DNA from: Parcubacteria group bacterium Greene0714_7
Lineage (GTDB): Bacteria; Patescibacteriota; Minisyncoccia; Phycocordibacterales; Phycocordibacteraceae
Assembly: GCA_007378985.1 (NCBI GenBank)
Contig: VMHB01000002.1
Coordinates: 158,273 to 222,272 of the forward strand
Direction of reading: 5' to 3'
Length of the DNA stretch: 64,000 nt
In this document: one piece after another, positions 2,532 to 60,925 of the stretch
Numbering within the stretch: position 1 is the first letter of the stretch
Layout: each line of letters opens with the position of its first letter
The notes under the pieces: model-generated
What the model was told of the DNA's origin: nothing
What the model saw: only the letters and a program-made list of their open reading frames with translations
Databases searched by the model: none
Made by a program: the position numbers and the translations under genes

Positions 2532-2567
2532 AGCTTACAGGTTTCAGCTGTCAGCTTCCAGCTTTAA
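2532..2567. repeat. intergenic repeat agcttacaggtttcagctgtcagcttccagctttaat (inverted copy at 45912..45947)
   Basis: exact reverse-complement match to 45912..45947 read directly from sequence. Confidence 0.8.
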
Positions 2568-2614
2568 TCGTTAATCTTGAATCCTGCATCGACTCATGGT
2601 AGCCTGCGAACACA

Positions 2615-2881
2615 ATGGCAATAACAAAAGGAGCAAAAAAGGCACACCGTGCGTCCCTCAGGAAGCGTGTGTTCAATATCCGTCGCAAACGAGCTATGGC
2701 AGAGGGTGTTAAAGTCGCCCGCACGTTTGTTGGCAAGGACAAGAAGGAGCAGATGGCAGAGCTTGCAAAGGCATATAGCGTTATCGATAAAGCAGCAAAA
2801 CGAGGCGTCATTAAGAAGAACACTGCATCTCGCAAAAAGGCTCGTCTCTCAGCACTTCTCAAAAGATCGAGCGTTAAATAA
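2615..2881 (+). CDS. rpsT: 30S ribosomal protein S20
   Basis: MAITKGAKKAHRASLRKR... basic 88-aa protein with S20 signature. Confidence 0.85.
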   Translation: MAITKGAKKAHRASLRKRVFNIRRKRAMAEGVKVARTFVGKDKKEQMAELAKAYSVIDKAAKRGVIKKNTASRKKARLSALLKRSSVK

Positions 2882-2889
2882 AGATTTGT

Positions 2890-3087
2890 ATGAATGGTGC
2901 GAATGAAAGGCATCGGCAGGAGGCTCGAGCTCGGCAAAGTAGGATAAATGCTCGAAAACGAACTGGAAGGGAGTCTCACCAAGTAGGGAGCGTTTATTAC
3001 GAGCGTGGCGCTACACTAAGATATTGCCCAAATTGTTCGGGGAGAATGTTTTTTCGCAAATGTGCGCATTGCGGTTATTACTCATAA
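2890..3087 (+). CDS. hypothetical small basic zinc-ribbon protein
   Basis: CPNC...CAHC motif pair at C-terminus; Arg-rich N-terminus. Confidence 0.35.
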   Translation: MNGANERHRQEARARQSRINARKRTGRESHQVGSVYYERGATLRYCPNCSGRMFFRKCAHCGYYS

Positions 3088-3123
3088 ACACCTCGAGGTT
3101 TAATTGTAGAAAAACAGCAACCT

Positions 3124-3555
3124 TCAGGTTGCTGTTTTTCTTTTGAAGTACGTTTCGAGGGCAAGGAGGCACACCGGAAATATTTCTTGTTCGGATAGTT
3201 GGTCTTTTGTTATCCAGCGTACCTCATCGATTTCATCAGTCGGCAATCCAAACGGCATTTCAGGATTTGTAAGTTCAGCCTCGTACGCAATCAAAAGGGT
3301 GGGACCTTCACTGTGAAGAAATTGCTCCATCAAGATAATTGAGTTTACTTGTATAGACACACCGAGCTCTTCCATTACTTCTCGCACCACTGCACCTTCT
3401 GGTTTTTCTCCATGGTGCACTCTTCCACCTGGAATATCCCAAAGTTTGTTGGGGTTTCTCGTGTGACAAAAAGCAATAAGAACTTCATCATCCCGAGTGA
3501 TGATTGCTTTTGATGCCACTTTGCCTACAAAGTGTTCAGAGGGGTTCTCGTCCAT
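3124..3555 (-). CDS. NUDIX hydrolase
   Basis: Nudix box GGRVHHGEKPEGAVVREVMEELG. Confidence 0.8.
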   Translation of the reverse strand: MDENPSEHFVGKVASKAIITRDDEVLIAFCHTRNPNKLWDIPGGRVHHGEKPEGAVVREVMEELGVSIQVNSIILMEQFLHSEGPTLLIAYEAELTNPEMPFGLPTDEIDEVRWITKDQLSEQEIFPVCLLALETYFKRKTAT

Positions 3556-3692
3556 AAAGGCATGGTAACAGAAGTTGAACCTGAAAAATTTCTTGAAGTA
3601 TGCTACATTCCTGACACCGCTCTTGTAAGCATAGCTTTCAAGAGCTCTCTCGAAAAGAATCCGTACTCAAGGTACTATTCTCTTTCTCGCTC

Positions 3693-3764
3693 GCTCTTGT
3701 CGTTCAACGGATAGGACACTCCCCTGCGAAGGGAGAAATGCAGGTTCGATTCCTGCCGAGAGCA
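3693..3764 (+). tRNA. tRNA-Arg (anticodon read as GCG)
   Basis: Hand-folded cloverleaf: acceptor GCTCTTG/CGAGAGC (one GU), D-stem GTTC/GGAC, anticodon stem CTCCC/GGGAG with loop CTGCGAA, T-arm GCAGG-TTCGATT-CCTGC, discriminator A; no CCA encoded. Confidence 0.75.
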
Positions 3765-59787: not shown

Positions 59788-59811
59788 TGATGGATTTTAG
59801 CATGAGGAAAA

Positions 59812-59975
59812 TAATAGATTCAGGATTTAGGATTCAAGATTCAGGAATTAAAAAGAGAATGAGTTTTAGATACAAAATTCACTATAAAAAGACCTCACGT
59901 TTGAACCTTGAGAGAAAGGGTCTTATGGGTCTGTTTCAGAAGGTGCTATTCATGAATCCTGAATCTTGCCTCTTG
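59812..59975. repeat. gattcagg-family tandem/inverted repeats in ftsK upstream region
   Basis: gattcaggatttaggattcaagattcagga (59812..59842) and inverted tcctgaatcttgcctcttgaatc (59953..59975). Confidence 0.7.
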
Positions 59976-59978
59976 AAT

Positions 59979-60010
59979 CTTCGCCAGTCTCGATCTTAAA
60001 CCGAGACTGG
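59979..60010 (+). promoter_or_regulatory. 11-bp-stem perfect hairpin cgccagtctcg-atcttaaac-cgagactggcg in 5' region of 60046 gene
   Basis: read directly. Confidence 0.5.
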
Positions 60011-60045
60011 CGAACCCTTGCAAAGGACAAGGTCTTAGAGGTAAA

Positions 60046-60822
60046 ATGACCTTGAAATTAAAGACCGATAGCGTTTCATATATGTCCGATAGTATAAAAG
60101 ACAATCAAGGTAATCAGACAAATAAGAAAACGCTCAGTGTAAGCGCTTCTTTTCATTTGGGACACCTTTTATCTAATGGACATCATGCTTTTGTTGTTAA
60201 AAAGTCTGAGAGACTAGCCTCCGCCCTATATGTAATTACCGGCTTCTTGTCTCCCGATGAACCTGCACGAGGACGTCTCCGTTCTTGTGCGCTTGACCTT
60301 CTTAATCGATCGACAGATCAGGCAAAACTTCACGGTGCTAGCATAGAGTCTTTTGGTGCTCGTTGTATGGAGATAGGTGCAATACTTGAGACCGCAAAAG
60401 CGGGCGGGTTGATATCGGCAATGAACGCAAAACTTATAGGAGATGAATATGCCTCGCTTGCTTCTTTTGTCCGAGACAATCAAGAGAAGATTTCTGAACA
60501 TGTTGGTCGGATAGAGGAAGCCCTCTCTGACCTAGAGACTCCGAATAGTTTTTCTATAGGACATGTTACAAAAAGTCCTTTAGATTCTCTCAGGATAAAA
60601 AACAATACTTTGAGAATCGCCCCTCAAAAAAGACAGTCCGATAGAAGGGATTTAGTGCTCGCTGTTTTCAAAAATAAAGAAAAACTTTCTATAAAGGACA
60701 TCACCGCATCAGTCGTTGGTTGTAGCGAAAAGACAGTACAGCGGGAGCTTCTGTCTCTTGTTCAGTCAGGCACCCTTATAAAGGAAGGGGAGCGCAGATG
60801 GAGTACTTACAGAAAAGCGTAA
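60046..60822 (+). CDS. hypothetical regulator with C-terminal winged-helix HTH
   Basis: C-terminus RRDLVLAVFKNKEKLSIKDITASVVGCSEKTVQRELLSLVQSGTLIKEGERRWSTYR resembles DeoR/MarR-like wHTH. Confidence 0.4.
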   Translation: MTLKLKTDSVSYMSDSIKDNQGNQTNKKTLSVSASFHLGHLLSNGHHAFVVKKSERLASALYVITGFLSPDEPARGRLRSCALDLLNRSTDQAKLHGASIESFGARCMEIGAILETAKAGGLISAMNAKLIGDEYASLASFVRDNQEKISEHVGRIEEALSDLETPNSFSIGHVTKSPLDSLRIKNNTLRIAPQKRQSDRRDLVLAVFKNKEKLSIKDITASVVGCSEKTVQRELLSLVQSGTLIKEGERRWSTYRKA

Positions 60823-60834
60823 GCTTTTCTGTTA

Positions 60835-60925
60835 GGGTATAGCCACTAGGGTGTAGGGGTCTTCCAGTCCACGCTTTCTGCCTCTCCCTAAACCCTAATG
60901 GCTATTGGCTAATCCCTTTTCGATA
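60835..60925. repeat. composite intergenic repeat block (gggtatagccactagggtgtagg; ccctaaaccctaatggctattggctaat)
   Basis: first part is reverse complement of 34296..34320 (cctacaccctagtggctataccc); shares ccctaaaccctaa with 34296 and 53350 blocks. Confidence 0.75.

Follow-up and report, generated by a model that had tools for sequence, protein, structure and literature searches.

Between the genes of a 64-kb chromosomal stretch (hereafter the window, meaning the whole of the DNA analyzed) from an uncultured Paceibacterota bacterium, a member of the Patescibacteria or Candidate Phyla Radiation (CPR), lie short tandem arrays of degenerate heptanucleotides, and it is these arrays that we describe here. 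The FtsK protein of the window (57592-59787, minus strand) shares 97% identity with its counterpart in a metagenome-assembled genome (MAG), JBBAAE01 (Candidatus Paceibacterota), and 84% with that in a second MAG, and the related loci, 80 in number, all belong to Paceibacterota or Parcubacteria. The genes are ordinary housekeeping genes: ruvA, the genes for the isoleucyl- and arginyl-tRNA synthetases (IleRS and ArgRS), recO, thyA, tmk, folA, dcd, rpsF-ssb-rpsR, efp, a gene for an ECF-type sigma factor, recA, ftsK, secE-nusG-rplK, and rplS. Pfam scans, which took in about 45 of the approximately 80 open reading frames (ORFs), revealed housekeeping domains and one small GIY-YIG nuclease only, with no transposase or REP-associated tyrosine transposase (RAYT) and no protein resembling HutP, TRAP, or CsrA. 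An Rfam 15 scan of the window at the gathering score found five tRNAs and no other family, and the arrays match no known RNA family.

Tandem Repeats Finder returned 37 rows for the window, of which 17 had period 7 and four had period 14, the sites being 2532, 16982, 30342, 34317, 36322, 45851, 45914, 52667, 53285, 53349, 54353, 54962, 55010, 59817, 59953, and 60895. An autocorrelation scan (counting stretches of 21 nt in which 15 or more of the 21 positions matched at the lag in question, with lags of 4 to 15 and shuffled sequence as the control) yielded 16 runs of period 7 as compared with 0.35 in the shuffles, as well as 13 runs of period 14; each of the remaining periods gave at most six runs, these being multiples of three expected from coding sequence. 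The sole period-7 run within an ORF was a T-rich low-complexity stretch. In all, about 21 or 22 arrays of three to six tandem heptamers, typically with four to five units in approximately 30-38 nt, are spread over 14 intergenic regions; they occupy about 1% of the window and a third of its intergenic regions. Because independent assemblies hold the same arrays, they are not an assembly artifact: a contig assembled from a Sequence Read Archive (SRA) run, L214, is identical to the window at the arrays, and several NCBI MAGs carry arrays too. The arrays, together with one neighboring terminator, are as follows.

2531-2568, plus strand: five units, TAGCTTA CAGGTTT CAGCTGT CAGCTTC CAGCTTT; abuts the ruvA start codon (2529-2531, minus strand; RuvA by Pfam).
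2563-2593, minus strand: AATCGTT AATCTTG AATCCTG CATCG; a second array directly abutting that at 2531-2568, with another word and the opposite polarity.
3985-4019, minus strand: degenerate array of period 14, CTTCCCT CCAAACC CTTCCCC CTAAACA CTAACCG; beside the stop codon of ORF 4024-4485 (minus strand).
5251-5282, plus strand: TAGGGAA TAGGGGC TAGCGTT TAGTGTT; ORF 4475-5269 terminates at the third TAG (5267-5269).
5288-5318, minus strand: inverted partner of the preceding array, CCCTAAA CCCTGAC CACTAAC; at the 3' end of a convergent EamA-family gene.
16980-17017, minus strand: AAAGCTA GCACCTA GAAGCTA AAACCTA GCCCCTA; between the stop codon of a pseudouridine synthase gene and rplS.
30336-30373, plus strand: near-perfect (TAGGTTC)x5; begins with the stop codon of a SIMPL gene; one unit fewer in L227.
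About 30387-30418: separate canonical terminator downstream of the SIMPL-gene array.
34302-34345, minus strand: read on that strand, TAGGGTT TAGGGTA TAGGGTA TAGCCAC TAGGGTG TAGGAG; the first TAG is the dcd stop codon and the far end lies at the Shine-Dalgarno (SD) sequence of folA; 25 nt are identical to 60833-60857.
36317-36355, plus strand: (TAGCGTA)x3 TAGCGTT TAGGGGA; fills the divergent thyA/tmk intergenic region of about 43 nt.
45849-45884, plus strand: TAGCTTT TAGCTTA CAGCTTT TAGCTTT CAGG; immediately 3' of the recO stop codon.
45911-45948, minus strand: ends 5 nt short of the ATG (45954) of a DUF11 gene; inverted and identical to 2531-2568; forms a strong hairpin with 45849-45884.
52661-52697, minus strand: GCACCTA GAACCTT GAGCCTA GAAGCTG; overlaps the tatD stop codon, upstream of rpsF; same phase but other words in L002 and L003.
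53280-53311, plus strand: TAGGAAT TAGCCAT TAGCCAA TAGGGTA TAGG; rpsF terminates at the first TAG.
53347-53386, minus strand: CCCCTAA ACCCTAA ACCCTAA CCACTAT CCCCTAA; stops 1 nt short of the ssb ATG (53388).
54349-54380, minus strand: AAACCTA GCACCTA GCACCTA GAACCTT; adjoins the efp stop codon (54381-54383).
54961-54998, plus strand: TTAGGGT ATAGGGT CTAGTGG TTAGGGT TTAGGG; 4 nt from the efp start codon (54956, minus strand).
55008-55046, minus strand: AAAGCTG GAAGCTG GCACCTG AAACCTG AAAGCTT; lies upstream of the sigma-factor gene and, but for 3 mismatches, repeats the 34-nt unit a third time.
59813-59850, plus strand: TAGATTC CAGGATT TAGGATT CAAGATT CAGGAAT; upstream of ftsK (start codon at 59787, minus strand).
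59950-59983, minus strand: inverted partner of the preceding array, TGAATCC TGAATCT TGCCTCT TGAATCT; upstream of ORF 60046-60822.
60833-60862, plus strand: TAGGGTA TAGCCAC TAGGGTG TAGGGG; after the stop codon of ORF 60046-60822.
60883-60917, minus strand: inverted partner of the preceding array, CCCTAAA CCCTAAT GGCTATT GGCTAAT CCC; on the side of convergent ORF 60979-61356 (minus strand).

An initial annotation of the window had recognized one family of related intergenic heptamer repeats with dispersed copies, and the excess of period 7, together with the shared unit described below, bears this out. The pair of inverted copies that it reported at 2532 and 45912 is exact and extends to 38 nt (2531-2568 and 45911-45948, 100% complementary and 43 kb apart). 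Its view that the block at 60835 is the reverse complement of that at 34296 was likewise borne out, over 25 nt at 100% (34302-34326 and 60833-60857, 26 kb apart). A third copy of the 2531-2568 unit, with three mismatches, is present at 55010-55043; shuffled sequence gave no matches. The arrays at 5251-5282/5288-5318 and 2563-2593 and the degenerate one at 3985-4019 had been overlooked. Using the 19-mer AGCTGRCASCTGAAACCTG from the 38-nt unit, we also scanned a metagenome collection, in which at least 120 stretches matched; all metagenome figures below refer to the matches listed.

The words of the arrays are variations on a single theme. Unsupervised alignment, in which strand and phase were chosen for each array and column-permuted arrays served as the control, reduced all of the words in the window (TAGGGTN, TAGCNNN, CAGCTTN, TAGGTTC, TAGCGTA, and CAGGATT) to one degenerate unit, n-Y-A-G-S-k-T (S-C-T-R-R on the reverse strand), with frequencies of 0.85 for A, 0.72 for G, and 0.80 for Y and an information content of 3.59 bits as compared with 2.30 +/- 0.10 bits for the permuted arrays. 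Within imperfect arrays the column pairs that stayed invariant were preferentially AG/CT, both in the window together with Paceibacterota loci (odds ratio 4.2, p = 6e-10) and in the metagenome loci (odds ratio 3.3, p = 9e-17), and word positions 4-7 were free to vary. This measure supersedes a comparison of core conservation by ungapped alignment (0 of 27 versus 15 of 42), in which some circularity is built in, given that arrays in phase with each other inevitably have their cores aligned.

The arrays also have a preferred size. In-phase YAG chains of three, four, five, and six units numbered 7, 6, 7, and 1 in the window and 80, 72, 77, and 12 in the metagenome loci, as against 3.35 (three units) and 0.1 (four units) in shuffled sequence. 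These lengths are not geometric, reaching a plateau at three to five units and then collapsing, which points to a preferred size of about four to five units. The register distance between paired arms, meanwhile, was uniform modulo 7 (chi-square p = 0.22), and the lack of phasing led us to reject a continuous protein filament over both arms.

The same features recur well beyond the window. The 19-mer matches came from contigs of 35-69% GC and nearly all lay within longer (NNSCTGA)n arrays, with many of these arrays terminating a few nucleotides before an ATG. In 770 kb of these contigs there were 326 arrays of period 7 as compared with 4-55 for periods from 5 to 11, and the 200 arrays that had not been picked by the search pattern shared the core C-T-G-A (2.96 bits versus approximately 1.9). 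One contig of 9.9 kb and 61% GC (L160) holds 15 arrays in less than 10 kb, in regular order and of three recurring types (CAGGTGC/CAGGTGT, CCAGCCT/CCAGTCT, and ACAGCCG/TCAGCCT), which suggests a larger repeated module made of arrays. None of 2.9 million viral contigs matched the 19-mer, and on this basis we set aside an origin in phages or other mobile genomes. Among related CPR genomes the arrays recur patchily: they are dense in the Paceibacterota loci L002, L003, L010, L026, L027, and L070, and there are none in L004, L005, and L008, which are nearer by FtsK identity.

The arrays have a fixed polarity with respect to genes. The initial annotation had placed them immediately after stop codons, which is true of about half of those in the window; about half abut start codons, five of these being 0-5 nt away (ruvA, 2531; the DUF11 gene, 45954; ssb, 53388; efp, 54956; and thyA, about 36315), and arrays are found not only in convergent and tandem intergenic regions but also in divergent ones, which they fill (thyA/tmk, efp/sigma factor, and ftsK/60046 gene). 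For arrays beside a single gene border in the window, the CTR strand ran 5' to 3' into the adjoining gene in ten cases and away from it in none (p = 0.002). Read in the sense of the mRNA, (YAGSNNN)n follows the stop codon and (NNNSCTR)n precedes the start codon. The metagenome loci, with genes called as longest ORFs, gave 76:23 (p = 9e-8; 34:9 at starts and 42:14 at stops), and the bias persisted in contigs of less than 50% GC (14:1 at stops) and when pattern-picked arrays were removed. Non-array intergenic sequence beside gene borders showed no YAG/CTR strand skew, and hence the polarity is not inherited from a general intergenic skew. It follows from this polarity that, where an intergenic region of the window holds two arrays, they always face each other. 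In the metagenome loci, neighboring arrays were ordered YAG..CTR in 45 pairs and CTR..YAG in two, with 18 pairs in the same direction. The YAG strand is the G+T-rich strand.

The unit also carries stop codons, TAA, TAG, or TGA in C-T-R-R and TAG in Y-A-G, every 7 nt. Since 7 = 2 x 3 + 1, three units put a stop in all three frames. On the sense strand of whole window arrays the three frames were closed in 10 of 11 cases as compared with about 0.3 expected (p = 6e-5), and the 30 nt 3' of stop codons were closed in five of eight array-bearing intergenic regions as compared with one of 26 others. In the metagenome arrays, the strand running into the gene was closed in 64% of cases as against 23 +/- 4% expected, with the opposite strand at chance. 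The first TAG of the array doubles as the stop codon of rpsF and of dcd, and a TAG of the array is likewise the stop codon of ORF 4475-5269.

Evidence on how the arrays change came from two comparison loci, L002 (about 90% DNA identity to the window) and L003 (about 74%), and from sister contigs, defined as those encoding exactly the SSB, EF-P, or NusG of the window; look-ups with the DUF11 protein, DHFR, a 161-amino-acid protein, a 258-amino-acid protein, Dcd, and RuvA yielded few sister strains or none. Between tatD and rpsF, L002 and L003 have arrays in the same phase as that of the window but with other words, and the ftsK intergenic region of L002 contains a different cassette between conserved flanks (97.5% identity on the aligned side). 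At some orthologous intergenic positions either L003 or the window itself lacks arrays: rpsF-ssb is 105 nt versus 2 nt, and ssb-rpsR is 15 nt versus 59-62 nt. Other alleles differ in length by whole units. The ssb-rpsR region occurs as 15, 38, or 59 nt, corresponding to zero, two, or five units; the SIMPL gene is followed by three versus four TAGGTTC units (127 versus 134 nt); and the L11 intergenic region is 125 versus 139 nt. In eight contigs whose ssb DNA is 100% identical to that of the window, an unrelated single array of 47 nt replaces the 105-nt array-spacer-array cassette, with flanks of 97-100% identity that extend for 900 nt or more to one side and 500 nt or more to the other. Both rpsF-ssb alleles are present in more distant strains as well, which argues that they are old variants swapped by recombination through identical flanks rather than made anew. 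Spacers inside cassettes are conserved, and one sister-strain rpsF-ssb allele opens with TAACTGA AACCTGT.

Two further observations concern the sister contigs. After rplK the window has a 279-nt intergenic region (32204-32482) with an ORF of 69 amino acids (32206-32415) and no array, and at that position strains L224-L233 have 50-139 nt with arrays of the TAGGTTC or TAGCGTT type, some with a GC-rich insert of 86 nt. Contigs assembled from single SRA runs (L001, L223, L234, and L235) begin or end inside arrays (window positions 45919, approximately 30344, and approximately 2555), an indication that heptamer repeats fragment short-read assemblies.

Dispersed tandem heptamers have been encountered before. 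Those of Calothrix and Nostoc, known as short tandemly repeated repetitive (STRR) sequences and said to have been described by Mazel et al. in 1990, reportedly have the words CCCCAGT, TTGGTCA, and CAACAGT. They resemble the window arrays in being intergenic and in the presence of CAG in two of the three words, and one metagenome locus (L086) has units of the CAACAGT type beside arrays of the CTGA type. They differ in that the cyanobacterial arrays can be much longer, have fixed words, and belong to another lineage; the strict STRR words are not those of the window, whose host is a Paceibacterota bacterium and not a heterocystous cyanobacterium. The existence of STRR heptamers is cited by Rehm et al. 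(2015; PMC4692102), who described arrays, mostly of four units, of GGGAATC in Xanthomonas and GGGGAYT in Nostoc PCC 7120. There, the G-rich strand takes the antisense orientation in the 50 bp upstream of ORFs and the sense orientation in the 50 bp that follow stop codons, which it overlaps; the arrays are intergenic and under-represented in ORFs, form 70-75 convergent inverted pairs per Xanthomonas genome, vary strongly in length and sequence among close species, and were proposed to form G-quadruplexes (G4s). Thus, units of 7 nt in tandem groups of about four, intergenic location, polarity, inverted pairs, and rapid variation are common to the two systems, whereas the Xanthomonas and Nostoc repeats, from a gammaproteobacterium and a cyanobacterium rather than a CPR bacterium, have one word per genome in place of many words with a common YAG/CTR core, and most of the window arrays are incapable of forming G4s. 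For the heptamers of Nostoc, deletion upstream of recO had modest effects on a reporter, with a partner still to be identified (preprint 10.1101/2022.06.06.494920).

The TAACTGA repeats that MacGregor (2015; PMC4679880) described from marine Beggiatoaceae, cyanobacteria, and Bacteroidetes are two to six tandem intergenic heptamers of patchy phylogenetic distribution that lie in the forward orientation a few nucleotides from starts lacking an SD sequence; binding by S1, Csp, or CsrA was considered, and their function is described as unknown. Their unit holds C-T-G-A, the core of the metagenome arrays, and they too are intergenic, start-adjacent, and patchy. The five genes of the window with array-adjacent starts likewise have no SD sequence; TAACTGA itself is absent from the window arrays, which share only the CTRR core. 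TAACTGA is, moreover, a single exact word, and stop-border arrays and inverted pairs do not feature in that account, which mentions one indirect repeat among 170 sets. More distant are the phase-variable heptamer simple sequence repeats (SSRs) of the Haemophilus influenzae hmw promoters, which are likewise reported to be 7-nt units upstream of genes with a strain-variable unit number (PMC12721329) but are long and found at contingency (surface) genes, rather than having three to six units at housekeeping genes such as ssb, efp, ruvA, thyA, ftsK, and those for ribosomal proteins. The family is therefore not uncharacterized, as the initial annotation had supposed: the arrays are a member of the known class of intergenic heptanucleotide repeats (STRR, GGGAATC, and TAACTGA), with a new host, the CPR, and an unusually mixed vocabulary. 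A literature search found no paper describing heptamer repeats in CPR bacteria.

How might such arrays arise and persist? From the 7-nt length alleles and the replacement of cassettes we infer slippage, exchange, and dispensability, and the interpretation we favor, to which we assign a probability of about 0.5, is that the arrays are made by slippage, shuffled by recombination, and dispensable, being kept only in forms that selection tolerates, with a net effect of translational punctuation. Units would be gained and lost in 7-nt steps, as the alleles display, by slipped-strand mispairing, and those within each array would be homogenized; whole intergenic cassettes would be swapped between strains by homologous recombination through identical flanking genes; and some arrays would be copied into new sites. 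The arrays would thus be self-renewing and without a dedicated function, and what persists would be the tolerated form, which combines an AG/CT core, a length of about five units, and a single orientation with stop codons in each of the frames. These stops would bar translation across the repeat into or out of the neighboring gene, and the transcript could form a hairpin when both arms share a word.

Several points weigh against tolerated junk of this kind. It leaves unexplained the period of 7, the AG/CT invariance, the limit of about five units, and the polarity at stop borders. Three stops can be encoded in 11 nt, and arrays of 35 nt are unnecessary for closure. Xanthomonas GGGAATC shares the polarity yet, judging from the repeat sequence, has no stop codon on either strand. 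The polarity is equally strong at stop and start borders, and antisense stops have no obvious meaning in translational terms; in CTGA-type arrays of other lineages at stop borders, it is the antisense strand of the neighboring gene that carries the stops. Over the final 30 nt ahead of start codons, closure was seen in one of five array-bearing and six of 34 other intergenic regions, which is no difference, and the claim of three-frame closure is accordingly limited to whole arrays and to the region after stop codons. Finally, the longest-ORF gene calls in the metagenome loci are crude.

Other roles at start codons were considered and rejected. Pairs of hexamers resembling sigma-70 promoters numbered 18 as compared with 23.4 expected and did not lie in the spacers, and neither -10/-35 nor leaderless geometry fits a promoter. 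Nor do the arrays provide an unstructured, G-poor leader: the region from -35 to +15 of array-adjacent genes did not differ from that of other genes (folding, p = 0.95; G content, p = 0.67). Replacement of the SD sequence was also discarded. Array-adjacent starts have none, but this is not special because a strong SD sequence (duplex of -6 kcal/mol or lower) is present in only about 6% of all window genes, and translation initiation in this organism seems to be largely SD-independent.

Of the competing explanations, the one that survives best, while still unlikely in our judgment, is that an oligomeric nucleic-acid-binding protein reads AG every 7 nt, its binding to the first-transcribed YAG arm governing the formation of a hairpin with the CTR arm and so bringing about antitermination or insulation at many intergenic regions. 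Two models suggest themselves, the HutP hexamer, which binds XAG-N4-XAG-N4-XAG in the hutP-hutH intergenic RNA, and the omega ribbon-helix-helix repressor, which binds 7-bp heptads that are direct or converging. The omega heptads are iterons of one fixed word (WATCACW) repeated at the promoters of a plasmid regulon, unlike the arrays, which have many words, are found in all types of intergenic region, and are chromosomal in the window. Counted against the idea is that we know of no such protein shared by the CPR, cyanobacteria, Xanthomonas, and Beggiatoaceae. In the hut terminator RNA of Bacillus subtilis, the stretch from a stop codon to the next start carries XAG every 7 nt, in sites that flank a hairpin, and HutP reads the A and G of XAG at U498, U505, and U512 (PMC2425495). 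This is a precedent for a register-reading protein, given the YAG every 7 nt in the window arrays, and it accords with the invariance of AG at exactly 7-nt spacing, with the freedom of word positions 4-7, and with sizes of three to five units that suit a small oligomer. The YAG arm is, moreover, the 5' arm in transcripts of either strand (45:2), which agrees with the kinetic logic of HutP and TRAP, in which binding proceeds 5' to 3'. Nonetheless, hut is one operon, and its two sites are on the same strand, whereas the arrays occur in a third of the intergenic regions and the second array of a pair is inverted, unlike HutP site II. The arms are also unphased, the arrays are dispensable between near-identical strains, and the scanned proteins of the window offered no candidate.

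A broader proposition, which we regard as an unlikely conjecture, is that one hidden grammar, consisting of an AG/CT core every 7 nt, about five units, and telomere-like polarity, runs across lineages and implies dedicated machinery. The very different lineages in question are the CPR, those of the metagenome contigs (35-69% GC), and, on the strength of published accounts, Xanthomonas, cyanobacteria, and Beggiatoaceae. Such machinery could be a widespread oligomeric AG-reader (an insulator or antiterminator like HutP) or templated extension of 3' ends at breaks.

It is improbable that paired arrays act as RNA hairpins, serving as bidirectional terminators or 3'-end stabilizers, which corresponds to the REP-like role suggested in the initial annotation. 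Some pairs do fold: the arms are complementary in five of seven window pairs and in many of the metagenome pairs, which have spacers of about 20 nt, and the segment 45846-45953 folds at -41.9 kcal/mol (z = -4.1), with z values of about -2.1 and -2.4 for two further pairs. Single arrays and pairs with unrelated words (2531-2593 and 54961/55008) cannot pair, however, and behave like shuffled sequence (z = -0.3 to -1.6). The arrays are not intrinsic terminators: they are equally common at starts and in divergent regions, where termination is not needed; they have no U-tracts, the terminator scan reported no array, and canonical terminators lie beside them (30387-30418 and 54309-54331). A hairpin, furthermore, needs neither a 7-nt period nor a fixed order of arms. 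Hairpin formation, recombination, and effects on mRNA ends are possible as side roles.

We think it quite improbable that the arrays are the multi-site terminal inverted repeats of miniature mobile elements served by a dedicated transposase, in the manner of transposable elements of the miniature inverted-repeat type (MITEs) or REP doublets forming hairpins (REPINs). Like these and like repetitive extragenic palindromic (REP) sequences and bacterial interspersed mosaic elements (BIMEs), the arrays are short, dispersed, intergenic, often in inverted pairs, and found in some strains but not in others. Exact copies of 38 nt and 25 nt are separated by 43 and 26 kb, respectively, presence/absence alleles are sharply bordered, inward-facing arms resemble terminal inverted repeats, one five-unit element (..CTGAAAGCTGACAGCTGAAACCTGAAAGCTA) recurs in many contigs, and SRA assemblies break inside arrays. 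The arrays are nevertheless not REP-like, being tandem heptamers and not palindromic hairpins of about 35 nt with a GTAG head, whereas REP sequences are single imperfect palindromes (about 20-40 nt) with a GTAG/CTAC head that are moved by RAYTs and MITEs have terminal inverted repeats with target-site duplications, neither having a 7-nt periodicity. Filled and empty ssb-rpsR and rpsF-ssb sites showed no target-site duplication, and neither a transposase nor a RAYT was found among the scanned proteins. The two arms often have different words, single arrays still obey the polarity, the variation of words within one genome would be intolerable to one transposase, and viral contigs, as noted, gave no match.

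Still less probable is that the arrays are repair scars, in which a break in an intergenic region would be followed by outward extension of the 3' ends through reiterative 7-nt copying (telomerase-like or by slippage) and by joining. Such an origin would explain the telomere-like polarity, with the G/T-rich strand running 5' to 3' away from both genes whatever their orientation, as well as arms with unrelated words, the gap of 2 nt or less between the detected array windows in 13 of 45 pairs, confinement to intergenic regions, and replacement of whole regions between otherwise identical sequences. CTG and CTA are the initiation trinucleotides of bacterial DnaG primases. Against this, no bacterial enzyme of the kind is known, the conservation of spacers within cassettes is left unexplained, and cassette alleles are old and common to several lineages, which fits recombination better than repeated new synthesis.

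G4 formation, proposed for the heptamers of Xanthomonas and Nostoc, scarcely merits consideration as a general explanation, since TAGGG-type arrays at 34302-34345, 53347-53386, and 54961-54998 do have, by reading, at least four GGG tracts with 4-nt loops and the polarity is as in PMC4692102, but only about three of approximately 21 window arrays have four G3 tracts, and the AGCT-, CCTAG-, GGTTCTA-, AGCGTAT-, and GATTCAG-type arrays, which cannot form G4s, follow the same rules of polarity and size.

The window has other features of note. Upstream of ftsK a motif, TGTCCTTTA, recurs in L011, L017, L021, L026, L027, L029, and L070, with the form CTTGCAAAGGACAAG at 60017-60031 of the window; it is repeated several times in that position in many Paceibacterota, including array-free ones, and is probably the operator of a conserved regulator. 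The GIY-YIG nuclease gene (PF01541, E = 4.8e-17; 98 amino acids, 35164-35460, minus strand) lies between dcd and thyA and is bracketed by a 22-nt direct repeat, AAATCTTA[G/C]ACCCTGTTAAATA, at 35065-35086 and 35166-35187; it looks like a free-standing insertion of the homing-endonuclease type beside thymidylate synthase. A segment made up of the tRNA-Arg 3' end and a further 12 nt (3748-3777) recurs with 90% identity at 3918-3947, each copy (within 3693-3979) being followed by a hairpin, that at 3936-3979 with perfect 20-nt arms, and the duplication looks like an att-type scar of an insertion of about 170 nt. Similarly, 27 nt of tRNA-Val (14691-14717) recur with 85% identity at 14978-15004 (region 14636-15004), which may represent another duplication or integration scar associated with a tRNA. 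The gene-free gap at 13220-13814 (595 nt without a long ORF) contains a perfect palindrome of 42 nt, CAGTATAGTATAAAGTAACGA/TCGTTACTTTATACTATACTG, at 13238-13279, with no Rfam match. Finally, the isoleucyl-tRNA synthetase (41789-45277) has a histidine-phosphatase domain (His_Phos_1, residues 502-665, E = 3.8e-30) inserted between the halves of its catalytic domain.

Intergenic heptamer repeats have been known since 1990 and are still without an accepted function or origin. The window extends them to the Patescibacteria, where the expenditure of about 1% of 64 kb on repeats is notable because CPR genomes are tiny and streamlined. In practical terms, the arrays break short-read assemblies of CPR genomes, shift predicted stops and starts, and provide hypervariable markers for strain typing. 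Because the polarity holds for arrays incapable of forming G4s, the one structural explanation so far published cannot apply in general. What the window and its sister strains offer is a dense natural population series, in which identical genes are accompanied by zero, two, or five units or by wholly different cassettes, and a set of rules that makes the question testable, namely the AG/CT core, the size of about five units, the 45:2 order of the arms, and the polarity at start and stop borders, rules that recur in metagenome contigs and match published data, ordinary intergenic DNA having no such polarity.

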